Shown here in pieces: positions 11,540 through 51,475 of a stretch of 64,000 bases of DNA. The stretch comes from Candidatus Daviesbacteria bacterium RIFCSPHIGHO2_02_FULL_43_12 (GTDB lineage: Bacteria; Patescibacteriota; Microgenomatia; Daviesbacterales; UBA10151). A model generated the notes under the pieces. The model was given only the letters and a program-made list of their open reading frames with translations, was not told the origin of the DNA and did no database searches. A program made the translations under genes and the position numbers. The stretch lies in contig MFDD01000002.1 of NCBI GenBank assembly GCA_001776775.1, forward strand, positions 37,746 to 101,745. Reading direction: 5' to 3'. The number at the start of each line of letters is the position of its first letter. Positions within the stretch are counted from its first letter, which is position 1.

Positions 11540-12883
11540 TTATAGCTTAAATCTTCGGTCAGCTAAAAAAGGATTGGGTTTTCTGGAAACCTTGGCACTT
11601 CCTAGTAAAACTGCCCTTTGTAAGGTAAACTCTCCGTAGCGGTCGTTAACTTTGTCTAAAGCTTGCAGGATGCGCTCTTCTTTTAATCGGTCTTCCAGGA
11701 AAGTCCTGTTCCGGGGGTAGGCAGACGTTAAGTTCGAAACCGAAACTCCGACCATCCGAATCTTGTCTTTATTCCAAAGTCGAAGAAAGGTTTGCCAAGC
11801 AGCTTGAAAGATCTCTAACCCGCTACTAGTTGGAGCGATAGTCAACTGCATCCCTCTTCCGCTAAAGCTACGGAGGGCGAGCCCGTCTCCTGAGGTAGAG
11901 CCATTAGAGTATTCCAAAGCTTCAGCGAAGGCATACCGAAACCACATACTCACTGTTTCGCCAACTAATTTCTTATGTCGCAGTTTACGAGAGATTAGCT
12001 CAGTGATCTTTAGAAAGATCTGTTTAACCTCTTCTGCGCTTTCGGTATCGTGACTTAAGGTATGTCGATGGCCGACTGATTTAACTTCCGGTTTCTGGTA
12101 AAAGGGTACTATCGGAGTAGGGTCTATCCCTCTGGCATAGTTAAATAAAACCTCACCGTAAGACTTGAAACTTACCATCAGCGTTTGTTTAGACGCTTGC
12201 CTCAAGCTTTTAAAATTGGTAACCCCCATATTCAGTAAACGCTTTTTGGTCTTGTAACCTATCCCGCAGATCTCGTCTAGCTCGACTCGATCCAGAATCC
12301 ATTGAGCGGCTTCTTGGTCGGCAATCATCACTAGTCCATCCGGCTTGTATAAAGATCCGGCAAGTTTGGCCATGAGTTTGTTGTAAGAAATGCCGATCGA
12401 ACAAGTGATCCATTCCCCGATCTCTGCTCGAATGCGAGACTTAATTTCAGTAGCAAGCTGCAACAGGTTATAGTTATCTTTTTCTGTACACTGTCCCCTG
12501 TGCCCTGTCAACTCCAAAAAGCATTCATCAATAGAAAAAACCTCCAGATAGGGAGAATAATCCTTGAGGATGTTTAAGAATTTTTGGGTCGTATCCAGAT
12601 ATTTGTCGCTATCGCCATTGACTAAAATTAGCTCGGGGCAAAGCTGGCGAGCCTCCCATATCTGCATCCCTGTCCTCACTCCAAACTTTTTTGCCTCCAC
12701 CGAGGCAGCCCCTAGAACTGTCCTGGTCGTACGATCCCCACCGGTTACTCCAATTGGTTTACCACGCAGCCGGGGGTTCGCCTGCTGCTCGACTGTGGCA
12801 AAGAAGGAATTAAAATCAATATGTACTATAATACGATTCACGATATATGATTCAGGATTCATGAATCTTGTATCTTGAATCAT
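11540..12883 (-). CDS. dinB: DNA polymerase IV (Y family)
   Basis: HIDFNSFFATVEQ, SIDE catalytic motif, AKLAG, KSVGHRHT; ATG 12883 follows GAGGAAGG. Confidence 0.93.
   Translation of the reverse strand: MIQDTRFMNPESYIVNRIIVHIDFNSFFATVEQQANPRLRGKPIGVTGGDRTTRTVLGAASVEAKKFGVRTGMQIWEARQLCPELILVNGDSDKYLDTTQKFLNILKDYSPYLEVFSIDECFLELTGHRGQCTEKDNYNLLQLATEIKSRIRAEIGEWITCSIGISYNKLMAKLAGSLYKPDGLVMIADQEAAQWILDRVELDEICGIGYKTKKRLLNMGVTNFKSLRQASKQTLMVSFKSYGEVLFNYARGIDPTPIVPFYQKPEVKSVGHRHTLSHDTESAEEVKQIFLKITELISRKLRHKKLVGETVSMWFRYAFAEALEYSNGSTSGDGLALRSFSGRGMQLTIAPTSSGLEIFQAAWQTFLRLWNKDKIRMVGVSVSNLTSAYPRNRTFLEDRLKEERILQALDKVNDRYGEFTLQRAVLLGSAKVSRKPNPFLADRRFKL
11856..11931. repeat. Inverted pair of REP-like palindromic units inside the dinB little-finger domain
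   Basis: cttccgctaaagctacggagg (11856-76) vs revcomp ccttcgctgaagctttggaa (11912-31); encodes AFAEALE...LRSFSGRG insertion. Confidence 0.65.
12484..12511. repeat. Heptamer array CTGTNNN x4 in dinB
   Basis: ctgtaca ctgtccc ctgtgcc ctgtcaa; encodes TGHRGQCTE just after SIDE. Confidence 0.7.
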
Positions 12884-12889
12884 GAATCT
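12834..12889. repeat. Palindromic heptamer array (NGATTCA x4 / TGAATCN x4) at the dinB start
   Basis: cgattca cgatata tgattca ggattca | tgaatct tgtatct tgaatca tgaatct. Confidence 0.85.
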
Positions 12890-13130
12890 ATCCTTCCTCA
12901 ACTGCTTCTAAGGTCCACTTCAAAGAAGTAGTATCAAATCCCAGTCTATAAAAATTACCCCCTGCTGACACCGAAAAGTGATAAAATAGCGAAGATCCAT
13001 TTCGGTTTTGATGACAAAGATTGATCTTGTCGATTTTGATTTGACGTTGATTCCAAAAAAAGAGGTAAGGTTCTATGGTAGATTTCCTAAAAAAAACCCA
13101 AACATTAATAGGTTCACTCAGCTCTAACAT
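12888..13130 (-). CDS. Small beta-rich protein co-transcribed with dinB (DUF6504/ImuB-C-terminal-like)
   Basis: EPINV, PYLFFWNQRQIKIDKI, FYRLGFD..KWTLE pattern; ATG 13130 lies just downstream of the promoter. Confidence 0.7.
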   Translation of the reverse strand: MLELSEPINVWVFFRKSTIEPYLFFWNQRQIKIDKINLCHQNRNGSSLFYHFSVSAGGNFYRLGFDTTSLKWTLEAVEEG

Positions 13131-14937
13131 AGCTAACCCTATTATTACCCGAATCAAACCCGAATGTCAATCGAGCAAAGGTTACAGGTTACAGGTTACA
13201 GGTTACAGATGGACCGCAGGTTTAATCTCACTTTATCTCCTACTGTTTACTGTACCCTGTACTCTGTACCCTGCTTTCGCTATTGTTGACCCCCGAGTAA
13301 GTCTGAATAATAAGTTTGGAATCCATATTCTTTCAGCCGTCCCTGACGAAGCCTCGGCTGCGGCAACTTTTGTCAACTCCAAGGGAGGAGATTGGGGGTA
13401 TGTTACTCTGTTAATTGAAAATCGTGACCGGGATAAGAATAGATGGCAACAAGTATTTGATGATCTACGCAGAAGACACTTAATTCCGCTAGTGCGGATA
13501 GCTACTCATCCCGAAGGGAGCGCCTGGAAAGTCCCGACTGACGGCGAGGAAAATATCTGGGCCGAATTTTTAAATAGCCTTAAATGGCCGGTTAAAAACC
13601 GCTATGTGATCATTTATAACGAACCCAACCAAGGCCAAGAATGGGGTGGACAAGTAGATAGCGCGTCCTACGCCAAGGTCTTGGATAAAACCATCGCTGC
13701 ATTAAAGGCCAAAAACGAAGATTTTTTCGTTTTAAACGCCGGATTTGATGCCTCTGCCCCAAATAAGGCACCCAGTTACGCAGATGAATTAATCTTTTTA
13801 CAGGACATGAATAAGGCTGTCCCGGGAATCTTTAATAAATTAGACGGATGGTCTTCTCATTCTTATCCTAATCCGGGGTTTGTTGGATCTCCGGAAGATA
13901 CCGGCAGAGGCACTACCTCTACCTGGGCTTGGGAAATGGAGGTGCTTTATGAGCTTGGGTTAAATAAATCTCTGCCTGTGTTTATCACCGAGACCGGATG
14001 GAAACACGCCGAAGGTATAAATTTTGATAAATCTTTGCCTGATGCTGATAAAGTCGCGCAGTATTATAAATATGCCTTTGAAAATACTTGGACCAGTAGC
14101 CAAATAGTGGCTATTACTCCTTTTATCCTTAATTACCAAGAAAACCCTTTTGACCATTTTTCGTTTAAGAAACTAACTGGTGAAAAACAAAACCTCAAAA
14201 TCCTGGGGCTGCAATATCCGGAATACTATTCTCCCTTTACTACCCTAGCTGATTTACCTAAATCTTCTGGCAGGCCAGTTCAGGTCAATAAAGCTGAGCT
14301 GGTCAAAGGGGCTTTGTTTACTTCGATTGTGGCTGGCGAAGAGTACACCATTCCCCTTACTTTCAAAAATACCGGGCAATCGACTTGGAACGAATACGAG
14401 CAGGTTAAGCTAGTAATCTTAAAGGGGGGTCAAGATTTAGGGATCCAGGATGTGGAGCTACCAAAAACAACTAGAGTAGAACCGGGCGGTGAATACACGT
14501 TTATCCTGCATGTTAAAAGTTTCAACCGGGGCAGCTTTAATGTTTCTTTGGCTCTGGTAGTGGGCAAAACACAATTTGAAGAACAAACTTTTGACTATAC
14601 TGTCGAAGTTAAACAACCGGTTATCTTGCAGGTAAAGGTTGGATTGAGGTGGGGCAAAGATGCGGCAGGGGTATATCTTTTTAAACTATCGACAGTCTTG
14701 GGTGATAGTTTTCAAAAAATACTACTCACCAGCTCTGGGGAATCCAGCCCAATCGATGCACGATTGCTACTGCCGGACTATAGTTTTGACTTTACCTTAA
14801 ACAAGCCCTACTACAAGACAAAGACCCTGCACCAAACAGTGCATTCCGGAGTTAATACCTTGGACTTTGGGATTATGGAACCAGACTTTTTTGCTGCCCT
14901 TTTCCACCCAGATCAATTTATCAAACTCTTGCCTTAG
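13075..14937 (+). CDS. Secreted clan-A glycoside hydrolase with NBR1-like Ig domain; start uncertain, possibly frameshifted
   Basis: IIYNEPN (acid/base), SHSYP, PVFITETGW (nucleophile), FKNTGQSTW Ig domain; no in-frame ATG/GTG/TTG between 13078 and the signal peptide. Confidence 0.75.
   Translation: MVDFLKKTQTLIGSLSSNIANPIITRIKPECQSSKGYRLQVTGYRWTAGLISLYLLLFTVPCTLYPAFAIVDPRVSLNNKFGIHILSAVPDEASAAATFVNSKGGDWGYVTLLIENRDRDKNRWQQVFDDLRRRHLIPLVRIATHPEGSAWKVPTDGEENIWAEFLNSLKWPVKNRYVIIYNEPNQGQEWGGQVDSASYAKVLDKTIAALKAKNEDFFVLNAGFDASAPNKAPSYADELIFLQDMNKAVPGIFNKLDGWSSHSYPNPGFVGSPEDTGRGTTSTWAWEMEVLYELGLNKSLPVFITETGWKHAEGINFDKSLPDADKVAQYYKYAFENTWTSSQIVAITPFILNYQENPFDHFSFKKLTGEKQNLKILGLQYPEYYSPFTTLADLPKSSGRPVQVNKAELVKGALFTSIVAGEEYTIPLTFKNTGQSTWNEYEQVKLVILKGGQDLGIQDVELPKTTRVEPGGEYTFILHVKSFNRGSFNVSLALVVGKTQFEEQTFDYTVEVKQPVILQVKVGLRWGKDAAGVYLFKLSTVLGDSFQKILLTSSGESSPIDARLLLPDYSFDFTLNKPYYKTKTLHQTVHSGVNTLDFGIMEPDFFAALFHPDQFIKLLP
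13141..13170 (-). promoter_or_regulatory. dinB-operon promoter with candidate LexA box in the spacer (13150-13164)
   Basis: Minus strand TTGACA-ttcgggtttgattcggg-TAATAAT; plus strand CGAA-tcaaa-CCCGAA. Confidence 0.8.
13179..13277. repeat. Inverted heptamer arrays: perfect (AGGTTAC)x4 and CTGTACC-type x5
   Basis: 13179-13206 and 13243-13277, around and within the signal-peptide region. Confidence 0.9.
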
Positions 14938-14974
14938 CTTTTAATGAGTTAATAATGTTGGTAGAATGGTTTAT

Positions 14975-20122: not shown

Positions 20123-21565
20123 ATGCACAATAAACCTGTGAACTCCCTTAACTTGATTCTCTTTGGTATCACCAGTAACCTGGCTCAAAAATATTTACTG
20201 CAAGCCCTCTATGACCTGGCAGAAAAAGAGTTGCTTCCAGACGGTCTTAAAATATTGGGGATAGCCAGGACTCCCATGACCAAAAAAGAGATCCGAAACT
20301 TTTTAATTGCAGTACTGCAAGCAGAAAACAAACACCACCAACATGAGATAAAGCAGACAGTGGTTGATAATTTAGCTAAGAAACTTTTTTATATTGACGG
20401 ACATATAGAGGATCCAAACCTTTATGTAAAAATTAAACAGTTTATTGGAAACGAAAATCCAGCTGGTGATATTATCTATTATTTAGCAACTTACCCTGAG
20501 CTTTATGAAACGATTTTTGAAAACCTCAAAAGCGAGCAACTAAACAAGCAAAAAAATGGTTGGGTTAGGCTGATGATCGAGAAGCCAATTGGTAATAATC
20601 TTGACTCTGCAAGAAAAATAAATAAATCTTTACTTAAATATTTTCAAGAGAGTCAAATATACCGACTAGATCATTATTTAGGAAAAGAGACCCTGCAAAA
20701 TATTTTGACCTTTAGATTTGGAAATAATATATTTGAGAATTTAGTCAACAAAGACTTTGTTGACCACATCCAAATCTCTTTACTCGAAGATTTTGGGGTA
20801 GGTAAACGGGGTGGTTATTATGATTTAGTCGGAGCATTAAAGGATGTGGGGCAAAATCATCTTCTACAAATGCTCGCCTTAGCAACTATGGATAAACCCC
20901 AGGAATTTAGCAATAAAGAGATTACCCATAATCGGGCAAAGGTTTTGAAAGATTTAGTTCCCTCGCCTAACCAAATTATCTATGGCCAATATGCAGGATA
21001 TAGATCTGAAAAAAATATCCCTCCGGATTCTCGTACAGACACATTTTTTGCTTTTAAAACCGAGCTTCGAAATAAGAGATTTAAGGGGGTGCCTATTTAT
21101 ATACGGTCTGGCAAAAAACTTAAACAAACGGTAACAGAAGTTTCGATTGTATTTAAAAAGCCCGCTAACTCTCTTTTCTCACCTATCGGGACAAGCATTC
21201 CGAATGTCTTAATTTACAGGGTTCAACCAAACGAGGGGATTGTTCTAAAAATCAATACCAAGAAACCGGGGCAAACTCAGAAATTAGAAGAAACGTATAT
21301 GCAATTTTGCTACCGGGATTACGAAACTGCCTTACCCGATCCTTATGAAAAATTAATTTTGGACGTGATGAAAGGAGACCAGACTTTTTTTAATGATGCC
21401 AAGGAGATAGAAGCATCCTGGAAGTTCATAGATCCTTTAGTTGGTGTGAGCAAAGATCTCTATATCTATGAACCTGGATCGTACGGACCAAAAGAGGCAG
21501 ATGACTTGATCAAAGCTGATGGTCGAGAGTGGTTAGAGCCGTCCAACTTATTCTGTAAGATATAA
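20123..21565 (+). CDS. zwf: Glucose-6-phosphate 1-dehydrogenase
   Basis: IEKPIG, RLDHYLGKE, DVGQNHLLQ, PYEKLI. Confidence 0.96.
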   Translation: MHNKPVNSLNLILFGITSNLAQKYLLQALYDLAEKELLPDGLKILGIARTPMTKKEIRNFLIAVLQAENKHHQHEIKQTVVDNLAKKLFYIDGHIEDPNLYVKIKQFIGNENPAGDIIYYLATYPELYETIFENLKSEQLNKQKNGWVRLMIEKPIGNNLDSARKINKSLLKYFQESQIYRLDHYLGKETLQNILTFRFGNNIFENLVNKDFVDHIQISLLEDFGVGKRGGYYDLVGALKDVGQNHLLQMLALATMDKPQEFSNKEITHNRAKVLKDLVPSPNQIIYGQYAGYRSEKNIPPDSRTDTFFAFKTELRNKRFKGVPIYIRSGKKLKQTVTEVSIVFKKPANSLFSPIGTSIPNVLIYRVQPNEGIVLKINTKKPGQTQKLEETYMQFCYRDYETALPDPYEKLILDVMKGDQTFFNDAKEIEASWKFIDPLVGVSKDLYIYEPGSYGPKEADDLIKADGREWLEPSNLFCKI

Positions 21566-21569
21566 AATT

Positions 21570-21625
21570 GGATTCATGATATAGGATTTATGATTCGTAA
21601 ATCATATTTCTTGAATCGTGAATCA
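21570..21625. repeat. Palindromic heptamer array filling the zwf/gnd convergent gap
   Basis: ggattca tgatata ggattta tgattcg | taaatca tatttct tgaatcg tgaatca; same family as 12834-12889. Confidence 0.8.
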
Positions 21626-22558
21626 TTATTTCTTAACGGAGTGGTGGCCAAATTGTCCACGAAGAGCAGAAACTGCCTTATTTCTAAATCCATTAGGAGA
21701 ATCTTCTCTGTCGTTGCCAGAACTCTCCCTGATTCTAATGGCATCCTCAATGACGGGAGTATCTATCTCGAGCTCCTTAGCAGCCTCGACTGTCCAGTCG
21801 GCCTCTCCTAGAATCCTCTGCTCTCCCCCACCTCCGGAGCCAATTTTCGAAGAAATGTTATCCAGATTTGGATCATCTTGAAAGGAGTTTTGCATCCATT
21901 CTACGAGTCTGGAGGTAATCACCGATTGGTGATTATAGATATCCATAACTTTTGCCAGATCAAAACCAAATGAACTATTTTTCAGGACAGCGACACCTTC
22001 AGCCAGAGCTTCCATCATTCCGTATTCAATACCGTTATGTACCATCTTGGCAAAATGCCCCGCTCCAACTGGGCCTAAGTGTTTAAATGCTTGGTCTGCG
22101 GCCAAAAGTTTAGCTAGAGGCTCAAAGCGTAGATAGTCCTCGTCCGAACCGCCAATCATCAAACAAGCTCCCGTTCGGGCACCCCCCGGACCTCCGGAAG
22201 TGCCACAATCCATAAAGTGGATCCGTGAAGACTTTAGATCCTGACTGCGACGAATAGTATCTTTGTAAAAAGAGTTAGCACAATCGACAATCAGATCATC
22301 TGCCGATAAATGGGGTCTTAGCTCGTTAATAAACTCGTCTGTTACTTCTCCAGCCGGAAGCATCAGTAGGATCATCCGAGGAGGCTCTAGTTTACTAACC
22401 AGATCTTTAATTGTTTCCGCCGGGATGGCTCCCGCTCCGGCAACTTCCTCGACTGGTTCGGGAGAGCGGTTCCAGGCCACAACTTCTACTCCCTGTTCAA
22501 GAGCATTTAAAACCATGGCTTTACCCATCTTGCCCAGGCCAATGAAACCAATTTTCAT
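21626..22558 (-). CDS. gnd: 6-phosphogluconate dehydrogenase (short, decarboxylating type)
   Basis: GLGKMG, GTSGG, KMVHNGIEYGMM, LRGQFGHH. Confidence 0.95.
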   Translation of the reverse strand: MKIGFIGLGKMGKAMVLNALEQGVEVVAWNRSPEPVEEVAGAGAIPAETIKDLVSKLEPPRMILLMLPAGEVTDEFINELRPHLSADDLIVDCANSFYKDTIRRSQDLKSSRIHFMDCGTSGGPGGARTGACLMIGGSDEDYLRFEPLAKLLAADQAFKHLGPVGAGHFAKMVHNGIEYGMMEALAEGVAVLKNSSFGFDLAKVMDIYNHQSVITSRLVEWMQNSFQDDPNLDNISSKIGSGGGGEQRILGEADWTVEAAKELEIDTPVIEDAIRIRESSGNDREDSPNGFRNKAVSALRGQFGHHSVKK

Positions 22559-22573
22559 TAGATCTAATATTAG

Positions 22574-22608
22574 AACAACTAGTAACTAGTGGCAAGTAAC
22601 AAGTTAAG
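22574..22608. repeat. Heptamer array AGTAACW-type
   Basis: aacaact agtaact agtggca agtaaca agttaag. Confidence 0.6.
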
Positions 22609-22612
22609 AGGT

Positions 22613-23341
22613 TTAGAGTCTGATGACACGGGAGCTGGCGGTAGTTTGCTTGAGCCAATCATTAAAAGCTGTAGTAGTTTTTTGTCTTTTAAGAGTATCC
22701 GCAATACTCTGTTTTAGCTTAGCGCTTTCCGAGCTTTGGGGATCAGTAATCTGAGGAAGCTGCTCCTTGTTGGTTTCCATATAAGCGGCGACTTCGTCAT
22801 CCGAAATTGTGATATCCTTGCCAAACATTTTCTCGATTAGGATTTGGTATTTAAGCTGCTTTTGAAAGTCGTCGATAGTCATACCTTGAAATTGGAGTAA
22901 CTGAGATAACTTGTCCATACCACCCTGTTCGGCGGCGATTTTATCTAACTCTATTTTGACATCAGCATCGCTAGCGTAAACATTTCTTTTACGGGCTTCG
23001 CTTATAATCAGAGTTTGACCAATCAAACGATCTGTGGCATCCTTACCGTAACGCGCTTCTAAATCACGATCAAGTTGAATGCGGGTGATCGGAATGCGGT
23101 CAACCCAGGCAATCACTAAAAACCTATATCCAAAAAAAAGAGCAAGTCCGACACCAGCTATTCCTACCAAAACAAACAGCTTCTGTTTAGTCGAATAACT
23201 GTTGAATAAATTTATAGTTTTATCTACTAGGCTTGGGCTAGTAAGAGGAGAGTTTTTTCTTTTGGACTTAGCTCGAGCAGTTTGGGTAACTGCTAACTTT
23301 TTTCCTATTTTAGATGTTTTTGAACCAACTTTTCGTGCCAT
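22613..23341 (-). CDS. SurA-N/PrsA-like membrane-anchored chaperone
   Basis: IAWVDRIPIT, LIISEARKRNV, ITISDDEVAAY; no PPIase domain. Confidence 0.8.
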   Translation of the reverse strand: MARKVGSKTSKIGKKLAVTQTARAKSKRKNSPLTSPSLVDKTINLFNSYSTKQKLFVLVGIAGVGLALFFGYRFLVIAWVDRIPITRIQLDRDLEARYGKDATDRLIGQTLIISEARKRNVYASDADVKIELDKIAAEQGGMDKLSQLLQFQGMTIDDFQKQLKYQILIEKMFGKDITISDDEVAAYMETNKEQLPQITDPQSSESAKLKQSIADTLKRQKTTTAFNDWLKQTTASSRVIRL

Positions 23342-23403
23342 AGTATATTTACTTAGGATAACTTTCTGATCTTATCATCTAGTACAGTCTGGGGCAAGGG
23401 GTT

Positions 23404-23438
23404 AGTTTAGAGTATATGGTATATAGTATATGGTAAGT
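23404..23438. repeat. Heptamer array RGTATAT
   Basis: agtttag agtatat ggtatat agtatat ggtaagt. Confidence 0.75.
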
Positions 23439-23458
23439 TGTGGATTTAGTACAAAATT

Positions 23459-23791
23459 ATGTGGCTTATTAATTTAACTAAGAAAACTACAGTTACTACA
23501 GACGCCAAAGAAGCATTGGGTTTTTGGGATAGGATGCTTGGACTATTGAATAATAAAAATCCCAGGTCGCTTATTTTTTATACCCGCTTTGGAATCCATA
23601 CTTTTGGATTGGATCAACCTCTTGATGTATTAGTGCTTGATAAAGGGTTTCGGGTGGTCCAACTCAAGGAAAACTTAAAACCAAACCGACTTTTCTTTTG
23701 GAATCCTAGATATTTGATGGTCGTTGAACTGCCAATTAACTCTATCCGGCTATCAAAAACTAGCCTGGGAAACCAACTAAAGGTAGAATAA
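23459..23791 (+). CDS. DUF192 family protein
   Basis: FWDRMLGLL, GIHTFG, PLDVLVLD, VVELP. Confidence 0.85.
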   Translation: MWLINLTKKTTVTTDAKEALGFWDRMLGLLNNKNPRSLIFYTRFGIHTFGLDQPLDVLVLDKGFRVVQLKENLKPNRLFFWNPRYLMVVELPINSIRLSKTSLGNQLKVE

Positions 23792-23826
23792 GCACCCTCG
23801 TCTTTGGTAGAATAGCAGAGTTAAAT

Positions 23827-23898
23827 GCCCCCGTAGGCTAACGGATAGACCACGACGCTTCGGACGTCGTTGTGCGGGTTCGATTCCTGCCGGGGGCA
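23827..23898 (+). tRNA. tRNA-Arg(TCG)
   Basis: GCCCCCG/CGGGGGC, CGACG-CTTCGGA-CGTCG, GCGGG-TTCGATT-CCTGC. Confidence 0.95.
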
Positions 23899-23908
23899 CA
23901 GATAAATC

Positions 23909-25162
23909 ATGGAGAAAAAAGATAATTCTTCAACTGGAGTTCGTCGTAGAACTCTTCTGGCCAAAACTGCACAGGCAGGAGGCGGATTACTAGCTAATCC
24001 TCGGATGGATTTTTTATCGAGCAGCATTACCCCAGAAGTAAACTTAAAAACAAATCAAATTGAAGTGGTCGGGCTGGATAAACCACTTTCTGAACAAGGC
24101 CTATTAACTTATATAAAAACTGTAAATGAAAAGCCTGCAGAAATGCTGGAAAATATGGTTTACGGAAGCATATTTGTTTCAAAAAAAGCCTATGAAGACT
24201 TTTCTAAAAATTTGGGAGAAACATTTGAATTATTTATACAAAGACACTCAACAGCCATGAATCACCTCCTTAAACAGGCAAATCCTCCCACCACCGACTT
24301 TACCATGCGCAGAATTGTTATTTTAGAAGACAAGGTAGCACCTCCTTATTCCGGTCACCAAAACTGGGCACAAAAGGGTATGAAAGACTCAGATGGTGCT
24401 TGGTTTTTTGGGGAGGCTTATAATCCGCGTTCAACAGCCTACTTTAGAAAGGAAGATAGTATTGATTTAGGGTTGTTGCATGAATGGGGACATACAATCC
24501 TACATTTAAATGATCAGTATAAACTAGATTACAACAATGCCGACTCCACATCCATAGATAGGATAGTTACTCAGCTACCCGCCTCTTGGAGAAAATATAT
24601 TGGATCATACAGAAACGATATGCTGGATTTAATGGCATCGACTAGTCCTCAATTTAATAGATTTACTGCCTTACAGCTCGAGAGAAGAAGAAAAAGAGGC
24701 TCCCATGATGTTTTGCCAAATATAGTTGATGAAAATGGTTGGCAACATGAGTTACCTCAGCAGGTAGGATTAAAGCTACTTCATGAAGGAAGAGAAATTA
24801 AGGTCAAAAATCTATCAGTATATGTAACTCAAGCACGAACGATCGGACCTGCGAGACAAAAAAATATTCCAGAAAAAGCTATTTTTGAAAATGATTCAGC
24901 ATTTCTTTATCCGCAGTCTTTTTTTATTCGGAGAGAATATGGGGTATACAGTGACGAAGCTACTGTGCTAATGCTGATAAGAGATGAGCATAATCAGAGA
25001 TACTTTCGTTGGATGGATATCAGGGATTTTAACATACCTTTTTGGCAGGGATTAGATAAACTGCAAGCCACATTAAACGTGGTATCTCAAGATGCAACAG
25101 AACCTCCAAATCCGGCAAACTTTGACTGGACAATTCAATACGAAGCGCAAGTAATAAAATAA
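23909..25162 (+). CDS. Putative zinc metallopeptidase (HExxH) with twin-arginine-like N-terminus
   Basis: LLHEWGHTILHLNDQY, downstream DLM Met-turn-like motif, VRRRTLL. Confidence 0.6.
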   Translation: MEKKDNSSTGVRRRTLLAKTAQAGGGLLANPRMDFLSSSITPEVNLKTNQIEVVGLDKPLSEQGLLTYIKTVNEKPAEMLENMVYGSIFVSKKAYEDFSKNLGETFELFIQRHSTAMNHLLKQANPPTTDFTMRRIVILEDKVAPPYSGHQNWAQKGMKDSDGAWFFGEAYNPRSTAYFRKEDSIDLGLLHEWGHTILHLNDQYKLDYNNADSTSIDRIVTQLPASWRKYIGSYRNDMLDLMASTSPQFNRFTALQLERRRKRGSHDVLPNIVDENGWQHELPQQVGLKLLHEGREIKVKNLSVYVTQARTIGPARQKNIPEKAIFENDSAFLYPQSFFIRREYGVYSDEATVLMLIRDEHNQRYFRWMDIRDFNIPFWQGLDKLQATLNVVSQDATEPPNPANFDWTIQYEAQVIK

Positions 25163-25178
25163 AGATAGGTACACATTT

Positions 25179-26036
25179 TTAATGATAGGGCTTAGTTAAA
25201 GAGTATCCTCTGATCTCTGGTCTGTTGACCTGATGAATATATAAATACATCTCCATCCCATTTGGCAATCTGACTTTTTTATCCCCCAATATTTTTCTTA
25301 ATCTAGATATTGCTACACTGACAGACTCCTTTGATGTCGAAAAGATACTTGCTAATTCGCCGCGAGAAAATATTCCGGTTGGACTTAGCTGAAGTATCTC
25401 AAGAATACAGGACTCAAAATGATCTACCTTAAAAAATTCATTTTTATGTGGTGGCGAAACCAAATTCCTTTTGGGGATGGATAATAGCTCTCCATGCGCA
25501 GTAGGGGTTTTAAGTACGCGAGGCAAGTCCTCACCAGGAGGTAATTGCAGGATTAAGGCTAGCTGCTCCTGGGATAAATGGGGCAATAAGGTAAAACCTC
25601 TTCTGGGAACCGAACATATAACGCGGGCCTCCTTTTTGCCTTCTTTGTCTAAACCCTCGGGTCTTAACTTTCTATTGATATGAGAGATCGCCTGATCAAT
25701 TGCAGTCAGTCTATTGCTATAAGTTAAAAAAGATGGGTGATCCTGGATCTCGTCAACGCTATAGACCTGGAATGGACTGCAGATAAACATCTCCAGCAAC
25801 AAGCCTTCTATCGTACCAAGCGATACCTTGATAGGTCGGCGTCTTCGGTGGCTGAGATTAGCCCTTCTGATGGTGGGATCATAGGAGAGCACACCTCTTG
25901 GCCCTAGGTCACAAAAGTATGTCAGAGAAAGAGGGAGGAAGCCGTCTCCTGAAACCTGACTAGGTACTTTTTCAGACCAATAAGGGCTGCCTGGAAATCG
26001 GCTAGTTTCACTTGCATTAGGCATGATCGGCATCAT
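25179..26036 (-). CDS. Protein with two OmpR/PhoB-type winged-helix domains, no receiver
   Basis: IDQAISHINRKL..CSVPRRGF and VSVAISRLRKIL..YIHQV..RGY. Confidence 0.65.
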   Translation of the reverse strand: MMPIMPNASETSRFPGSPYWSEKVPSQVSGDGFLPLSLTYFCDLGPRGVLSYDPTIRRANLSHRRRRPIKVSLGTIEGLLLEMFICSPFQVYSVDEIQDHPSFLTYSNRLTAIDQAISHINRKLRPEGLDKEGKKEARVICSVPRRGFTLLPHLSQEQLALILQLPPGEDLPRVLKTPTAHGELLSIPKRNLVSPPHKNEFFKVDHFESCILEILQLSPTGIFSRGELASIFSTSKESVSVAISRLRKILGDKKVRLPNGMEMYLYIHQVNRPEIRGYSLTKPYH

Positions 26037-26075
26037 ACACTAAGCCATATTAAACTGAAATAGGTATGAAGGGAA

Positions 26076-26516
26076 TTATTCATTCTGTTTCAACCATATA
26101 AAGACGGTTAGGGTGTATGTTAGAAGTAAGATGGCTTCGAAATAGAGGTTAAGGTTATAAGCAGGAATCCAGACTCGAAGAGCAGGAGAGATATTAAAAA
26201 TCAAAGAGTAATTAGTCACGGAGCTTAACCAAATCTCTAGTAAGGCGTGTAGGGCTGCCCAAATTGCAGTTAATTTGATAACCCTTTGGTATTTATTGAT
26301 ATCCTGGGAAAGTTCAAAGCATAAGATTGCTAAAAGTGCCGAAAACGATCCGAAGAGAATTCCAATTAAACTGCCGTAAGCCCTGGCTGAATCGACCCAT
26401 ATCCCACCTACTTCGGACAGCCGAATATTAGAAAGTTGGATTATCCCCAAGAGTCCAAAAAAGCAGACTCCAATAACCAGTTCAATCTTCAAGAGTTTGG
26501 CTATATTTAGTTTCAT
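26076..26516 (-). CDS. Four-TM membrane protein
   Basis: Hydrophobic ORF; the longer start would run into the tRNA-Lys promoter. Confidence 0.7.
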   Translation of the reverse strand: MKLNIAKLLKIELVIGVCFFGLLGIIQLSNIRLSEVGGIWVDSARAYGSLIGILFGSFSALLAILCFELSQDINKYQRVIKLTAIWAALHALLEIWLSSVTNYSLIFNISPALRVWIPAYNLNLYFEAILLLTYTLTVFIWLKQNE

Positions 26517-26627
26517 ATTGTTTAAACTTACAATGATTATAGCAAGATCAGACACTAAGATAATACCAGAGAGTAGTAGCTTTTTTCTTTCGATCTTAAA
26601 AGGTATAATTCTCAAAGATAAAATAAT

Positions 26628-26699
26628 GGGCCGGTAGCTCAGCGGTAGAGCAGGAGCCTCTTAAGTTCTTGGTCGTGGGTTCAAATCCCACCCGGCTCA
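26628..26699 (+). tRNA. tRNA-Lys(CTT)
   Basis: GGGCCGG/CCGGCTC, loop CTCTTAA, GTGGG-TTCAAAT-CCCAC; TATAAT at 26604-09. Confidence 0.95.
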
Positions 26700-26701
26700 C
26701 A

Positions 26702-27079
26702 CTATACTAAATCTTTGCGGAGGTAGATTAGGGAGTTGCCAACAGGATGATCTACCAGTTCGCCATACTGAACGTAGCCTAGCTTCTTATAAAACTCGGG
26801 AGCTTGCCAAGTGAAGGTGTTGGTGTAGGCAATCTTACAACCTCTCTTAATAGCTTCCGCTTCCACTTGTTCCATAAGCTTGGTTCCCCAATCTTGTCCC
26901 CGCAGAGATTGATCGACCCAGATAGACTGAATCTCCACGCCGTTCCATTCAAAAGCCACTATCACCCCACCCCAAACCTTGCCCTTGGACTGGTGATAGG
27001 ACAACATCCCCTGGCGCAAGGCCTCTTTGTCCTCAGGATTCGGCTCACCAGTTGATGGTATAAGTTTAAAATCACTCAT
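26702..27079 (-). CDS. GNAT acetyltransferase (possible internal deletion)
   Basis: IWVDQSLRGQDWGTKLM, TFTWQAPEFYKKLGY. Confidence 0.85.
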   Translation of the reverse strand: MSDFKLIPSTGEPNPEDKEALRQGMLSYHQSKGKVWGGVIVAFEWNGVEIQSIWVDQSLRGQDWGTKLMEQVEAEAIKRGCKIAYTNTFTWQAPEFYKKLGYVQYGELVDHPVGNSLIYLRKDLV

Positions 27080-27104
27080 GGATAGATTATATCAACATTA
27101 CCGA

Positions 27105-28142: not shown

Positions 28143-28174
28143 CAGGAGGAATATACATCTGTCTTCCCTGATTG

Positions 28175-30684: not shown

Positions 30685-30899
30685 ACTATAACTCCTAAAA
30701 GGGATGAGATTATAAATAGAAAAGATAGAATTATGGTTAGTATAAATAGCACTTTTTCAGCTCCTCTCCTAGTGCTGTACATCCCCATGCTTGACCCAAA
30801 AGTAGAACCGAGACCTGTGCCTTTGGCCTGTAAAATAATTAGCGTAACCAGGAGTATCCCTATAATAATTTGAGCGAAATAAATAATCTGCTTGATCAT
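30681..30899 (-). CDS. secG: Preprotein translocase subunit SecG
   Basis: ILQAKGTGLGSTFG, TRRGAEKVL. Confidence 0.93.
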   Translation of the reverse strand: MIKQIIYFAQIIIGILLVTLIILQAKGTGLGSTFGSSMGMYSTRRGAEKVLFILTIILSFLFIISSLLGVIV

Positions 30900-30900
30900 C

Positions 30901-31305: not shown

Positions 31306-31342
31306 AAATGTAGTGTAGCTTTTAACTTCCCTTGATGCAAAT

Positions 31343-32680: not shown

Positions 32681-32702
32681 GGAGGTATTGTATCATCTGA
32701 AG

Positions 32703-34688: not shown

Positions 34689-34693
34689 TACTC

Positions 34694-37630: not shown

Positions 37631-37745
37631 AATGTACTTCTCGATTCGTCTTCGCCTCACTCGAAGAATATTGTTTGAGCTGCTCCGTGCGTCAATTTTC
37701 AAGAGAAACCGAAGGCACTTTACTCGTTCGGGTACACTCGGCACC

Positions 37746-37760
37746 CGAAGACATCCCGAA
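37746..37760 (-). promoter_or_regulatory. Candidate LexA box upstream of uvrA
   Basis: CGAA-gacat-CCCGAA, just downstream of minus-strand TATACT (37773-78). Confidence 0.7.
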
Positions 37761-37841
37761 TTTAACCTCGTAAGTATACCTTAATTTGGAAAGTTTAGAA
37801 AGGGGTCAGTCCTACCTTTGTCGAGAATTTTTAGCTTCACA

Positions 37842-37895
37842 CCTTCAAGGCCCGCCTGCCATGCAGGCATTTCGGGCAGGTGGAAGGCTAAATAT
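37842..37895. repeat. 54-bp hairpin element, copy 1
   Basis: 51/54 identical to 48001-48054. Confidence 0.9.
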
Positions 37896-37958
37896 CAGAA
37901 TTGAGTATACTAAACTCTTAATCGTTGCAATTACACAGAGCTCAGGTAAGCTTAATAT

Positions 37959-37987
37959 TTGACTATAGGATTAAATCAATCTATAAT
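37959..37987 (+). promoter_or_regulatory. Sigma70 promoter, leaderless
   Basis: TTGACT-17 nt-TATAAT, ATG 6 nt downstream. Confidence 0.8.
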
Positions 37988-37993
37988 CTCAGT

Positions 37994-38437
37994 ATGAAAT
38001 TAGAAGCTCGTATTCAGAGATTCGTACCTAATAGGAGTGGCGAAGGACCAATTTTACAACTGACTACCTCACAGGACGGTTATGAAACTACTAAAAATTA
38101 TCAACACATAGCGGAGATCTCTCAGAGGGCAGAAACTCTGACTAACAGCGGTTTGAAAAGATTAATCATAGGGGCTGGTGCTGCACTGGTTTTGGTTGCA
38201 GGCGCCACTGACCTTATGCTAGAGATGTCAGGAAAACCTACTTTTGGAATAAGGAACCACATTTATGCAGCTGGAGTGTTATTTGCGTCAGCCTTAACTA
38301 CCGCAGTAGCGCTTCCGTCAGGATATAGAACTATTAGAATGGCAGAAAAGATTGGCTACGCTGTCTCAAGATATATCGACAAAAACTACACTAGAGACTA
38401 CGCTGCAGAATCTTCTACAGAGGTCTTAAGTACTTAA
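37994..38437 (+). CDS. Hypothetical two-TM protein between uvrA and uvrB
   Basis: ORF with two hydrophobic segments and its own promoter. Confidence 0.7.
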
Positions 38438-40390
38438 TTCTTTTATCTGGTCCCTTAACTTGGCAGCAGTTTCAAAATCCAGTAGTTCGGCCGCTTGTTT
38501 CATCTGTTGTTCTAAATCAGCGACTAATGTTTTACGCACTTCCGGGGGAAGATCACTAATAGATTCAACCTCCGCTCCGATTTGGGCTTCGGTTTTTTCG
38601 ATCAGCCGATCGCGCAGAGCTTTGTGGATCGAGATCGGAGTAATATTATAGTCTATATTATATTGTAGCTGATACTCCCTTCGTCTTTCGACCTCGTCCA
38701 TCGCCGCCTTCATGGACTTGGTAATATTATCGGCGTACATAATCACCTTACCCTCGATATGCCGGGCTGCCCGACCCATGGTTTGGATTAGCGAAGTCCT
38801 CGACCGCAGAAAGCCCTCTTTATCAGCATCTAAAATTACCACCAAAGAAACCTCAGGCAGATCCAAACCTTCTCTCAGCAGATTAATACCCACGATCACA
38901 TCATATTCTCCCAAACGAAGAGCGCTAAGTATATCTGAACGCTCCAGGGTTTTGATATCCGAGTGTAAATAGTTTACCTTCACCCCCTTTTCCGCTAAAT
39001 AGTCGGATAAATCTTCGGCCATACGCTTGGTCAGAGTAGTAATCAAAACTCTTTCTCCTTTTTTGGTCCGGGCTGCTACCTCTTTTAAGACATCGGCAAT
39101 CTGACCTTCGGAGGGGCGAACTTCAATGACCGGGTCAATAATCCCTGTTGGGCGAATCAACTGCTCGGCGATATTACTTGGACCAGCCAGCGACAATTCA
39201 TACTCATCGGGAGTAGCTGAAACATACACAGCTTGGTTGATCCGACGCTGGAATTCGTCAAATTTGAGCGGCCTGTTGTCCAAAGCGCTTGGTAATCTAA
39301 ATCCAAAATCAATTAGAGTTTCTTTGCGGGCTTTGTCGCCGTTATACATGCCTCTAATTTGAGGGAGGGTAATATGCGACTCGTCAATAATTAACAGGTA
39401 ATCCTTGGGGAAGTAGTCCAGTAAAGTGAAGGGGGCAGACCCAGGCTCCCGACCATCGAAATAGCGCGAATAATTTTCGATTCCGTTGCAATAGCCGTAC
39501 TCCTTGATCATCTCCAAATCGTAGTTGGTGCGTTGTGCAATTCTTTGCGCCTCGATGAGTTTTCCGCTGGACTCCAGACTCTTGACTCTGGACGCTAGAT
39601 CCTGCTCTATCTGAGCAATACCCGGTTTTAAACGCTGCTCGGGGGTAATATAGTGTTTAGCAGGGTAAACCGTAAAGATAAAAGGGGTCGGAGTGACACT
39701 ACCGGTTAGAGGATCTAAGTGAGACAATCTTTCGATCTTATCCCCTAAAAACTCTACTCTAATCGCTTGGTCTGTATAAGATGGGAAAATATCCACTGTG
39801 TCTCCGCGAACCCGGTAGGTTGAGCGTTTAAAATCGTAGTCGTTACGGTTATAAAACATTTTAGTTAATAGCTTCATCACCGACTCGATCCCCACTTTAA
39901 CCCCTTGCTTGAGCTCTAATATTGCCCCTCCATACTCGACTGGATTACCAATGTTGTAGATACAAGACACTGAGGCAACCACCACTACGTCTCGGCGGGT
40001 CATCAGGGAAGTGGTGGCAGATAGGCGAAGTTTTTCGATCTCTTCGTTGATTGAAGCATCTTTTTCGATATATGTATCGCTAGAGGGAAGATAGGCCTCT
40101 GGTTGGTAATAATCATAGTAAGAAACAAAATATTCCACCGCATTTTCAGGGAAGATGGAGCGAAATTCTTGGGCTAGTTGTCCGGCTAAAGTCTTGTTAT
40201 GAGAGATAATTAAGGTTGGCTTTTGGACTTTTTGGATCACATTAGCCATGGAAAAGGTCTTTCCCGAACCAGTGACTCCCAGTAAGACTTGATGCTTTTC
40301 GTCACGTTTCAGCCCTTGATAAAGATGCTCAATCGCTTGAGGCTGGTCACCGGTGGGCTGGAAATCTGAGATGATTTTGAAGCTAGGCAT
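38426..40390 (-). CDS. uvrB: Excinuclease ABC subunit B
   Basis: [31 protein letters not shown]-terminal UVR domain. Confidence 0.98.
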
Positions 40391-40404
40391 GATTAAGAAG
40401 TCTT

Positions 40405-40482
40405 TAGTCGGTAGCTTTTAGCCATTAGCCAGACAAAAAGCTGCTAGCTAAGAGCTCCTGACTAAGAGCTAATAGCTATTTT
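40405..40482. repeat. Inverted heptamer arrays TAGCNNN / CTANNAG in the uvrB 5' leader
   Basis: tagtcgg tagcttt tagccat tagccag ... ctgctag ctaagag ctcctga ctaagag ctaatag. Confidence 0.75.
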
Positions 40483-40506
40483 ACCACAACACAAACTTTA
40501 CCCGAA
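40478..40506 (-). promoter_or_regulatory. uvrB promoter (TGgTAAAAT) with candidate LexA box at 40492-40506
   Basis: Plus strand CAAA-cttta-CCCGAA overlapping the -35 position. Confidence 0.65.
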
Positions 40507-40527
40507 TAGCTTATCCGGAGCAAGCAA

Positions 40528-42078
40528 ATGTTGACAAAAATGATATACTTATCCAACTTGATGGTAACCAAACAACCATTGCAGATATTTGCTCTTCGGT
40601 TATTTCTTTCCTTAGTTCTAACTCTGCTCTACTTTGTATTCTTAATGGGTGGTTCTTGGGGGCTGGGATTTACAGTGATTAACCTGCTCTTTCTCGGAGC
40701 CTTGGTCATCCAAAGGCCGGAGCTTCTTAGCAAACCGCGCAATTTGGTTTTTTTGGGAGCGAGTATCGCTATCTCTCTGTTTTTTAGCTTTCGGGCTTTT
40801 TATCTTGGGCAATGGATCAATCAAGGGCTAATTATTGTCCTTAACTCGCTGTTGGTGCTGAACCCGCAGGGGGATCTAAGTCTGAAGGATTGCCTAACGG
40901 CACCTATTTATCTTTTTTTCCGTTCTTTGGTTGAATGGCCGGAAAATATTCTGACGATAAAAACTTACCTATTCCATCAGAAAACGGCGGGTTTTGGACA
41001 AAAGCTGAAGTTGGCGTTCTCTGGTGTAGTCATCGCTATCCCGCTCTTGGCTATTTTTCTGGTTCTTTTTCTAAATGCCGATCCCCTCTTCCAGCATTAC
41101 TTTAACTCTCTGCTTCCCAAAGACTTTTACCTGGATATTGAATTAATCTCCAAGATTATTCAACTCGGGTTTGTTTTTGCGCTCTTTTCTACTGGGTTTC
41201 GTCAGCACACCGGCCAACCTGCGACATCCTCCTGGCTAGACCAGGTCATGCAAAATCGCCGGGAAATCGCCTCAGCCTGTGTTTTTATTATTATTTTAAC
41301 CGGAACATTTCTCGCAGTCCAGGCACAGTACTTATTTGCCACCGAGGAGTTATTAAAACAAATGGGGGTAATGCTCTCGGAATACACTAGAAGGGGTTAT
41401 ACCGAGCTTTTGCTGGTTAGCTCGATTAGCCTGTCGCTAATACTAATTATTACTCATCGAGCTCGGGAAATCTCTCAAAGTTGGATAAAGATGGTAGCTT
41501 GGGTATTTATATTAGAAGTGTTTCTGCTGCTGCTATCTGCCAGCAGACGGGTTTATCTTTACCAAGAGGCCCATGGATTTACCTTGATTCGGATTTTAGG
41601 GATATTATTTAGCATCTGGTTGACCGGTACCCTGGGTATCTTTGCTCTCAAGCTCTGGGGACGATTGAAAGAAAAAACCTTGATCTTGGCTTTACTTATT
41701 AACACAATCGTAGTAGTTTTTTTAATGAATATTCTAAATCCGGACTATACTATTGCCGTAATTAGAAAACCCAATCTTGGTTACGGCATTGATTACCGTT
41801 ATATCACCGGACTCTCGGCAGATGGATATGCAGGCTGGGAAGAGGCCTTAACTGCCATGGAGAACAAATCCCCCTGCGAAGGAGAGGTTGGAGCGGTCGC
41901 TTCTCGGCTACGGCAAAAGCATACCGAATTTCAAGCTGATGCTAAAAATAACTGGCACAACTTTGGATCCTGGAAACTGTCCGAACAAAATGCAAATAAC
42001 TACATCCAAGACAACTACAAGCGCATTATGCAACTGACCGAGGAAAATTTAGCCTGCCAAAGCGAAGGTCCCAGATAG
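40528..42078 (+). CDS. DUF4153/DUF4173 family membrane protein
   Basis: LFLNADPLF, SEYTRRGYTELL, SASRRVYLYQEAHGFTLIR; start uncertain. Confidence 0.85.
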   Translation: MLTKMIYLSNLMVTKQPLQIFALRLFLSLVLTLLYFVFLMGGSWGLGFTVINLLFLGALVIQRPELLSKPRNLVFLGASIAISLFFSFRAFYLGQWINQGLIIVLNSLLVLNPQGDLSLKDCLTAPIYLFFRSLVEWPENILTIKTYLFHQKTAGFGQKLKLAFSGVVIAIPLLAIFLVLFLNADPLFQHYFNSLLPKDFYLDIELISKIIQLGFVFALFSTGFRQHTGQPATSSWLDQVMQNRREIASACVFIIILTGTFLAVQAQYLFATEELLKQMGVMLSEYTRRGYTELLLVSSISLSLILIITHRAREISQSWIKMVAWVFILEVFLLLLSASRRVYLYQEAHGFTLIRILGILFSIWLTGTLGIFALKLWGRLKEKTLILALLINTIVVVFLMNILNPDYTIAVIRKPNLGYGIDYRYITGLSADGYAGWEEALTAMENKSPCEGEVGAVASRLRQKHTEFQADAKNNWHNFGSWKLSEQNANNYIQDNYKRIMQLTEENLACQSEGPR

Positions 42079-48054: not shown

Positions 48055-48060
48055 GATAGG

Positions 48061-48114: not shown

Positions 48115-48148
48115 GGATAAAGTTCACCTTGCAAATACCAATAAATAT

Positions 48149-48766: not shown

Positions 48767-48812
48767 TACAGACAAGTAACAAAGGCTTACTCTAGGAAAT
48801 TAAAATGCTCAT

Positions 48813-49422: not shown

Positions 49423-49492
49423 ACTATAAGCATAGACTTTTTTCAAGATCCTGACAAGGTCCATTTTTAAATCGTAATACTATTACCAGGAT

Positions 49493-50002: not shown

Positions 50003-50082
50003 AAAGCAGATTGTACTATAAGCACTACTTAGGCTAGAGCACTTGACCTGAGCTCCTTTAACCGGTTACACTAAAGTCTCTG

Positions 50083-50703: not shown

Positions 50704-50765
50704 ATCCCGAAGAGTTTAATTATCCATGTGACAAAAGTTCAATTTAGGTTTAAACTACAGCAGAT

Positions 50766-51458
50766 ATGCTAACCATCGTGCCAACTCCAATCGGAAATTT
50801 AAAAGACATCACTCTGCGCTCTTTGGAAGCTTTACAAGACTGTGATGGAATAATCTGTGAAGATACCCGGCGCACTAGCCTGCTTTTAAATAACTACCAG
50901 ATCAAAAAAGAGCTTTTCATCTTAAATGACTTTAATGAAAAAGCTCAACTAGAAAAAATCATCTCCATAGTGCAGACCGGTAACTATTGTCTAGTTTCGG
51001 ATGCCGGAACTCCTTTAGTCTCTGATCCAGGATTTAAACTAATTAGAGAGTGTCTGGCTAAAAATATTAAGGTCGATTCGCTACCGGGAGCCTCAAGTAT
51101 TTTACCCGCTTTAACTCTGTCTGGGCTTCCTCCGAATAGCTTCTATTTTTGTGGATATCCGCCAGACAAACCAGGCCATAGAAAACAGCTTTGGGAACAG
51201 CTCAAAGCGATCTCTGAGCTCTCGACTACTACCTTTATTGTCTTTATGGCTCCTTTTAAGGTTAATAAAACTCTAGTTGAGATGATAGAAACTCTAGGCG
51301 ATGTTGAAGTAGTTTTAGCTCGGGAGTTAACCAAAATTCACCAAGAAGTAAAAAAGCAAACGATCAGTCAATGGCTTGCAGAGTTTAAAAAGAAAAAACC
51401 TAGAGGAGAATATGTGGCCCTGGTTTATCTTCCTCAGGGAAGTACCAAGAATCAATAA
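50766..51458 (+). CDS. rsmI: 16S rRNA C1402 2'-O-methyltransferase
   Basis: TPIGNLKDIT, CEDTR, VSDAGTPLVSDPG, ARELTKIH. Confidence 0.96.
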   Translation: MLTIVPTPIGNLKDITLRSLEALQDCDGIICEDTRRTSLLLNNYQIKKELFILNDFNEKAQLEKIISIVQTGNYCLVSDAGTPLVSDPGFKLIRECLAKNIKVDSLPGASSILPALTLSGLPPNSFYFCGYPPDKPGHRKQLWEQLKAISELSTTTFIVFMAPFKVNKTLVEMIETLGDVEVVLARELTKIHQEVKKQTISQWLAEFKKKKPRGEYVALVYLPQGSTKNQ

Positions 51459-51475
51459 TCAAGAACCAAAAATCA
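51441..51475. repeat. Heptamer array AGAATCA-type at a convergent gene junction
   Basis: agtacca agaatca ataatca agaacca aaaatca. Confidence 0.75.

Follow-up and report, generated by a model that had tools for sequence, protein, structure and literature searches.

Short arrays with a period of 7 nt are scattered through the 64-kb window considered here, which is the whole stretch of DNA that was analysed (C2:37746-101745 of the source genome, labelled G000; other G-labels denote related genomes). These arrays are real and belong to a structured, genome-wide family of elements. The favoured explanation, with a probability of about 0.6, is that they are gene-less copies of the arms flanking four-helix-bundle genes, spread by template-guided copying that replaces or adds host sequence.

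The source genome has 1,124,621 bases in 15 contigs and is 100% complete by markers; its best named TsaD matches are records of Candidatus Daviesbacteria and other Patescibacteria. With an array scored at 15 or more of 21 period matches, the window holds 14 arrays at period 7 and between 0 and 2 at each other period from 4 to 11. Genome-wide there are 149, compared with 12, 24 and 7 at periods 5, 6 and 8 (these counts include a few runs of N), and three triplet shuffles of the genome contain 0-3. Of coding sequence, 1126 open reading frames (ORFs) hold 77 arrays, and synonymous recoding leaves 4, 3 and 0. The original prediction, made from the letters of the window, had claimed at least 11 short period-7 arrays. 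All 11 are present at the positions it gave; its list was incomplete, having overlooked an arm in uvrB (39567-39596). The enrichment it expected over periods 5, 6 and 8 holds genome-wide and survives the codon-preserving shuffle on which it had staked the claim. The dispersed, over-represented 7-nt tandem units of G000 are what characterizes bacterial heptamer simple sequence repeats (SSRs), similar to the short tandemly repeated repetitive (STRR) sequences. The longest array is a perfect repeat of AGCCATT with about 19 units (C14:207157-207288). AGCCATT is also the unit of the arms at a four-helix-bundle gene in G028.

Five-register arms and the four-helix-bundle cassettes

Array length can be read from runs of phased AG dinucleotides. 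At period 7, runs of 3, 4, 5, 6, 7 and at least 8 number 624, 84, 87, 12, 1 and 5; the means for five other periods are 551, 44, 4.4, 0.6, 0 and 0. The excess has its maximum at five and drops at six. Pooled loci from five relatives show a weaker version of this pattern, with 39, 25 and 6 runs of 4, 5 and 6 versus 16, 0.8 and 0. Defined as (AG N5) x4 + AG, or 30 nt, an arm occurs 177 times in G000 (long arrays contribute about 5 of these as extra tiles, and the set mostly leaves out GA-register families, as at window positions 12834 and 21570). Shuffled sequences contain 3, 4 and 7, and periods 8, 10 and 5 yield 2, 2 and 27. When the 177 arms are aligned their ends are sharp, with no sixth AG on either side. 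The arrays of 4-8 units first described can be restated in these terms. A single arm is four full units and a closing dinucleotide, and an array counted as eight units is two abutting arms.

At least eight unit families share one register, and their ends differ by family. The main units are AGTTCAC, AGTCGTC, AGAGTCA and AGAATTC; by eye, the columns that vary are unit positions 5-6, irrespective of which base stands there. An expectation-maximization consensus (R-A-C-T-V-T-N) was computed without a random control and used for orientation only. Since the main units do not have four G-tracts of three or more, a G-quadruplex function for them was rejected. Of these arms, 100 are at junctions, 53 in genes in the sense orientation and 24 in genes antisense. 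Arm pairs within 120 nt are inward in 26 cases and outward in 4; lone arms without a partner are common. Arm density varies across contigs from 0.8 per 10 kb (C2) to 5.6 (C6). Contigs C3, C6, C8 and C12 carry 3.8-5.6 per 10 kb, about sevenfold the C2 value at the top of that range, and density is highest where core genes lie. This contrast may stem from the length of time the arms have been resident or from transcription level.

G000 has two PF05635 genes, one intact (C14:249036-249422) and one frameshifted. The intact protein scores 114 bits with PF05635 (cut-off 33.8) and 103.5 with TIGR02436 (cut-off 24). Its model (pLDDT, the predicted local distance difference test, of 86) has four helices and a fold like XCC0516. 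It matches 2GSC with a root-mean-square deviation of 1.2 (E 1.5e-6) and matches 2RLD as well, each of which contains five chains; there is also a weak match to Avd (E 0.02-0.07). A Xanthomonas protein of the same family has been described as a homopentamer (PMC4990558). By analogy with these five-chain relatives, the G000 protein would assemble as a ring of five.

Both loci are enclosed by inward arm pairs, and these are the two best-pairing long-range pairs among those listed. The cassette arms are identical at 24-25/30 positions in inverted orientation, much as the 23S rRNA intervening sequence (IVS) has a terminal stem of about 28-30 bp, and at both cassettes they have five AG/GT registers. 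Each of the four arms has 15-21 windows elsewhere at 23/30 or better, some of them overlapping in long arrays. Both cassettes are between protein-coding ORFs, not in an rRNA gene as the IVS is. A gene-less hairpin at C7:31340-31402 has inner ends in common with the frameshifted cassette. Excision of that cassette was considered and rejected, because the apparent skipping joint in four read sets is this other locus.

The association extends to relatives. The family is present in 37/41 related genomes, and 25/30 best loci have a period-7 score of at least 15/21 on at least one flank, compared with 1/56 usable control windows. Of 78 scored ORFs, 59 had their best flank score at period 7, 7 at period 8 and 6 at period 9; most runs were five long, and six ORFs had no convincing arms. 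Units and protein clades were compared for 51 period-7 cassettes, with 58 of the 78 ORFs kept for the tree. Unit similarity was 0.73 at protein identities of at least 70%, 0.42 below 30%, and 0.44 for pairs from the same genome (Mantel rho 0.22; 5/2000 permutations). Judged from these sequences, the unit in relatives follows the clade of the four-helix-bundle protein and not the host. Four genomes without a family match have 0, 0, 0.35 and 0.56 arms per 10 kb (samples of 57-71 kb) and seven with a match have 0.7-5.6, although the regions are only partly comparable. Other periods have been observed as well. Period-8 arms mark a separate four-helix-bundle clade, and two ORFs of about 190 aa, L175 (G006) and L196 (G001), are flanked by five period-9 units, with the same unit in two genera.

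Whole hairpins, and not just arms, recur in unrelated genes. For example, nine genes, among them dnaX, leuS, polA, atpA, valS and rplD, carry one hairpin variant that has a common loop and an insert of 10 nt, all in one orientation. In the 29 arms of the family flanking the intact gene the order of units is conserved (0/300 permutations reach the observed identity); units 1-2 begin AGT in 21 and 22 arms, and units 3-4 begin AGA in 20 and 23. The leader coded by the window hairpin at 29207-29320 also begins four unrelated genes elsewhere in the genome. The five leaders are identical at 60-72/84 nt up to the predicted cleavage site and at 4-14/30 just beyond it, and no mutual likeness was detectable among the mature parts of the five proteins. 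These leaders are predicted signal peptides. Orthologues of three of the five proteins have unrelated leaders with similar YAQ/FAQ/YAD end motifs, and the leader of the G001 YibE/F orthologue is unrelated.

The fixed length of five AG, the fixed polarity and the copying of whole hairpins between unrelated genes uphold the early suggestion of a common design over independent slippage. It had also been suggested that the arrays supply new peptide, and they do so as loops of up to +24 aa and as predicted signal peptides. An origin of the arrays in the cassettes, with copying, is very likely. The second arm of the copied hairpin has a small GC-rich palindrome inside it (G000 C12:8306, C6:55519, C14:77226 and others), and this palindrome nearly alone forms the matching junction in G001. 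At C12:35894-37668 there are three adjacent small ORFs, each with an arm pair in its first 45 codons; one has a pilin-type cleavage motif.

Replacement and insertion within genes

To follow their effect on protein length, 36 in-gene arms were compared with orthologues from relatives, mainly G001, G002, G006, G008 and G010. Nine of them leave length unchanged, another 11 bring 2-9 extra residues and 10 bring at least 10; for 2 the orthologues are longer, and 4 were unclassed. The description of the arrays as insertions stands for UvrC, with a true insertion of 15-21 residues, and covers only part of the set, given the nine neutral arms and the 11 that add only 2-9 residues. For example, the uvrB arm aligns without gaps to five orthologues. 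The uvrA arm, thought at first to be an inserted loop, is a same-length replacement, within one residue of 6/8 orthologues.

These arms are not accidents of codon choice, since recoding the G000 peptides yields an arm in 1.6-5.2% of trials and recoding three orthologous UvrB peptides yields one in 0%. Six in-gene arms were checked against the others, which match them at 22-28/30 (five of the six at 25 or more); among about 368,000 recoded 30-mers, 1 attained that level. Orthologues often have an array of their own at the same site (25/152 rows, versus 2.1% of random windows), frequently with a different unit. The uvrA site, for example, carries period-7 arms in G002, G008 and G010 and a palindrome like the repetitive extragenic palindromic (REP) sequences in G006 and G015; at aa 176-190 the latter keeps the same length. 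Similar GC-richer REP-like palindromes lie in frame at the same tolerant sites in relatives, at the uvrC, uvrA, dinB and TsaD loci.

At TsaD aa 70-85, 15/31 family genomes score at least 14/21 at period 7, and none do so at other periods. One length is kept in 18/31; the other 13 are longer, by +3 to +37 residues, and in several the extra length comes from REP-like palindromes. At unchanged length the types are GATTCAC/GATTAAC, AATTTCA, AGGCGTC/AGGTTAC, AGTAACA, or no arm. Where genomes with the same unit are compared, codons are identical at 9/9, 7/7 and 6/6 shared residues (22/22), versus 0.39-0.43 elsewhere. Either nucleotide-level selection or repeated rewriting would produce this identity. 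Because the site tolerates extra length, selection need not restore length, and this favours direct replacement, which is judged slightly the better account of the neutral arms.

Competing explanations and known systems

In the proposed mechanism a five-subunit ring would bind one repeat per subunit, thereby fixing both arm length and unit. TRAP binds its repeats in this manner, one per subunit. That a ring sets the length of the arm is probable. An arm or hairpin held by the ring as RNA or single-stranded DNA would then serve as a repair or recombination template at partly alike sites, with writing by a host polymerase or an unlinked reverse transcriptase (RT). Selection would keep the copies that leave the protein functional, and the presence of many unit families in one genome would be explained by protein clades that succeeded one another. 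Ring binding is proposed by analogy with TRAP and with the pentameric, RNA-binding Avd, and the writing step is likewise a proposal. A more specific version is tentative. In it a pentameric Avd-like ring measures and carries the five-unit arm (period 7, 8 or 9 by clade) and overwrites the chromosome via template-directed repair, as a widespread, transposase-free system. Equally tentatively, such a system would repeatedly rewrite the same essential codons and swap signal peptides, an RT-unlinked counterpart of the retrohoming of diversity-generating retroelements (DGRs).

The original prediction looked for a mobile-element or templated-addition enzyme beside the arrays, and this was not borne out. 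There were no matches in G000 to the Y1 transposase (PF01797), the kind of enzyme (RAYT) that goes with REP or REPIN arrays; no mobilizing enzyme was found, in a search that did not take the GxxExxY, GIY-YIG, IS630 and DUF559 families genome-wide. The sole RT gene (C5:3976-5301) is directly downstream of a large DNA methyltransferase-like gene in an island of 40% GC. It has no four-helix-bundle neighbour, the profile matching on C14 only, and the RT gene with adjacent avd that defines a DGR does not occur in G000. In our reading this locus looks like a retron- or Abi-type defence. Of the gene types that were to be sought at the arrays, only the four-helix-bundle gene is linked. The longest arrays, where an enzyme gene had been expected, are not cassette arms. 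Other ORFs between arms of the same family are ordinary genes (among them S18, FtsE and a protein read as SprT-like from its HELCH motif).

Several points weigh against the cassette-copying explanation, and the component claims behind its overall probability are correlated. No linked candidate for the writing enzyme was found, Y1 being absent and the RT unlinked. Co-variation of unit and clade is equally expected if arms merely travel with the gene, and kin are not independent. G000 has one intact and one frameshifted gene, yet no fewer than eight unit families. Gene number does not predict arm density: G007, with 13 matches, has 0.7 arms per 10 kb and G000, with 2 loci, has 5.6 in comparable regions. 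The few arrays of 8-19 units imply that slippage also acts. Among the neutral arms, those at C12:12234 and 13616 are weak and may be chance, and those at ArgS aa 492 and the S17 tail are neutral only as the median of scattered values. Synonymous sites are saturated between the compared genomes (same-codon 0.37-0.47), which leaves room for insertion followed by deletion, or for gradual point change. No close strain with an empty site was found; four low-share read sets over window positions 21001-41000 contained identical short pieces and other organisms, and no empty allele. The TsaD tree is poorly resolved, with 3/27 branches starred.

One alternative is a regulon, in which the arms are selected binding sites for the ring protein in housekeeping mRNAs, arising by mutation and kept for their function. 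Arms do cluster in ribosomal-protein, tRNA-ligase, repair and cell-wall genes (61 proteins scanned, in array-rich regions), the uneven density between contigs C2 and C6 is in keeping with it, and so is the codon identity at TsaD. MacGregor proposed such a role for TAACTGA repeats (PMC4679880). However, most sites are lineage-specific and add up to 24 aa of new peptide, and non-repeat loops and whole signal peptides have been copied along with the arms. The same TsaD unit is found in separate branches of the weak tree, so independent rewriting can mimic conservation. Strand bias was rejected as evidence for RNA binding; 44/61 lone in-gene arms are in the sense orientation, close to the 39.2 ± 2.9 that stop-codon avoidance alone produces. 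Overall a regulon is improbable.

[quoted passage not shown] Insertion at TA is the target rule of IS630/TA-type MITEs. The junctions offer some support. Among arms near a stop, 16/39 start at the AG of a TAG codon; in the junctions compared (17/61 with a syntenic match) the stop mostly keeps its position, and in relatives it is mainly TAA or TGA. The far arm stops 0-10 nt short of an ATG, with CT|A in 12/19 (background 0.38) and CT|AA in 7/19 (0.16). Moreover, Rickettsia palindromic elements are described as inserting in frame (PMC10969869). The T^A preference at junctions is modest, however, and inside genes it is weak or absent (T at -1 in 21/64 in-gene arms whose units do not end in T). 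As a sign of target-site duplication there is this preference at junctions only; by eye, no longer duplication was seen in 26 pairs. The ends vary by family and do not make up one terminal repeat; they have only the AG register in common, and subfamilies share loops. The transposase search found no Y1 enzyme and did not cover other transposase families. At TsaD, where +37 aa is tolerated, nothing forces length to be restored exactly. Stops need not be actively targeted, since with short gaps (median 16 nt) they make up a large share of neutral sites.

Polymerase slippage with a 7-nt bias, making arrays locally and pairs by inversion, is very unlikely. In its favour, Mrazek et al. 2007 (cited in PMC4679880) put it forward for heptamer SSRs, there are a few long perfect arrays of up to about 19 units, and likeness between units is a little higher inside an arm (0.68) than across partner arms (0.65-0.66). 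It does not predict the peak at five with a cliff at six, the polarity, the unit order, the shared loops or the link to a gene family. As an origin slippage is already contradicted; as a secondary modifier it is likely. It is just as unlikely that pairs are cut from mRNA as RNase III cuts the 23S rRNA IVS, with the gene rejoined or bypassed. In favour of this is the element of Coxiella, which RNase III excises and in which a 28-bp stem and heptamer repeats surround a gene of this type (PMC4990558). Against it, reading frames stay open through the in-gene copies that were examined, the 10-nt insert of the in-gene variant leaves one frame open, and lone arms are common. Overlap with open frames was the rule by which arrays were assigned to genes, and frame-breaking copies fell outside the systematic search.

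The cassette arrangement itself is known in part. The Coxiella S23p IVS likewise holds a gene for a PF05635/TIGR02436 protein looped between inverted ends, with a 28-bp stem and heptamer repeats upstream of the start (PMC4990558). In contrast, the G000 cassettes are between protein-coding genes, gene-less arms outnumber them by about 80 to 1, and arms enter coding sequence. The GGGAATC/GGGGAYT repeats of Xanthomonas and Nostoc (PMC4692102) also form convergent inverted pairs, some of them intragenic, with a preference for four units and with the purine strand just after stops and antisense before starts. Their four units are tied there to G-quadruplexes, whereas most G000 units have no G-tracts, and the sections of that account that were consulted name no partner protein or same-length replacement. 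Beggiatoaceae TAACTGA repeats have two to six units ending just before start codons (PMC4679880), and the four-heptamer elements of Geobacter metallireducens have four or five, in and between genes (PMC2700814). Those genomes are described as having one or a few unit families, read as regulatory; G000 has at least eight in one register. Rickettsia palindromic elements and other MITEs are likewise palindromes without a gene, and they extend unrelated housekeeping proteins by peptide in frame; they are described as insertions of about 150 bp with one consensus per family (PMC10969869). The G000 arms are periodic, 30 nt long, and can be single and length-neutral. DGRs, too, rewrite a coding stretch from a template, and Avd forms a pentameric barrel that binds RNA and resembles S23 proteins (bioRxiv 10.1101/2023.10.23.563531). 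Unlike a DGR, the G000 system has no linked RT, and adenine-specific variation is not evident by eye in the unit columns, no formal test having been made.

What G000 adds is a clear five-register ruler, the rewriting of one essential site by several families, and the copied signal peptide. A literature search covering few subscription journals found no statement of a general gene-arm rule, a five-fold ruler or overwriting. Published accounts call heptamer repeats abundant and leave them unexplained (PMC4692102, PMC4679880), and no function is known for the four-helix-bundle protein (PMC4990558). Five-register arms with units that track the protein clade join both questions in one direct binding test. 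If true, same-length rewriting and the copying of ready-made signal peptides would be an unrecognized route of protein evolution in compact genomes, dN/dS values and phylogenies would be biased at arm sites, and a new short-patch editing chemistry could be indicated. A writing system that explains bacterial heptamer repeats in general is a more doubtful prospect.

Arms of the window

The arms and related arrays of the window are as follows, by window position.

12484-12513, minus strand: lone 30-nt arm of AGNNNAC units in the variable loop of dinB, aa 131-140; orthologues have other lengths or other palindromes here
12834-12889, unstranded: hairpin of two abutting GATTCAY arms that overlaps the probable dinB start (fold z -3.4, orthologue alignment)
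13179-13272, unstranded: inward pair, AGGTTAC x4 + AG (13179-13208, plus) and its partner (13243-13272, minus); fold z -3.9
21570-21634, unstranded: GATTCAY/GATTTAY hairpin at the convergent junction of the glucose-6-phosphate dehydrogenase gene (20123-21565, plus) and a 6-phosphogluconate dehydrogenase (6PGD)-family gene (21626-22558, minus); fold z -6.3
22581-22610, plus strand: lone AGTGGCA/AGAGTCA-family arm, with the SurA-like gene on one side and the 6PGD-family gene on the other
23397-23426, plus strand: lone AGTATAT-family arm in a divergent gap
29207-29320, minus strand: hairpin that encodes the YibE/F protein's predicted signal peptide, with its arms at 29219-29248 and about 29289-29318; fold z -6.6
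32142-32213, unstranded: inward pair in frame in the Cys-flanked loop of uvrC, +15 to +21 aa; fold z -2.8
37182-37211, minus strand: lone arm in uvrA, aa 176-188, a same-length replacement by orthologue comparison
39567-39596, minus strand: lone arm in uvrB, aa 263-274, gap-free versus 5/5 orthologues
40399-40475, unstranded: AGC/GCT-family hairpin with its outer end 8 nt upstream of the uvrB start (40390); fold z -4.6
51441-51476, plus strand: lone AGAATCA-type array across the convergent junction of a methylase gene (50766-51458, plus) and ORF 51473-52975 (minus)
57942-57970, unstranded: weak AT-rich period-7 array upstream of typA that may be a worn arm

Six inverted pairs (at 12834, 13179, 21570, 29221, 32147 and 40405) had been thought able to form hairpins, and all six fold, with z between -2.8 and -6.6; no such fold is seen for the lone arm at 23397 (z 0.4). 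The stems at 12830-12892 and 13179-13272 consist of 6-bp helices with one mismatch at every seventh position, from which it follows that partner arms use slightly different units. The hairpin at 12834 is present as described, with the correction that it overlaps the probable start of dinB, because orthologue matches begin at residue 21-23. The pair at 13179-13272 is translated in frame in the N-terminal part of a GH5-like ORF (13075-14937), a part that by inspection is predicted to be signal-peptide-like. At 23404-23433, offset by one unit from the lone arm there, 23-24/30 positions agree with the arms that flank the frameshifted four-helix-bundle gene on C14.

The gene content of the window is otherwise ordinary, with dinB, uvrA, uvrB, uvrC, the YibE/F protein and typA among the genes. 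No rRNA was found in the window, which contains four tRNAs. An ApaLI-like restriction endonuclease and an N6/N4 methyltransferase form an ordinary pair at 840-2680.

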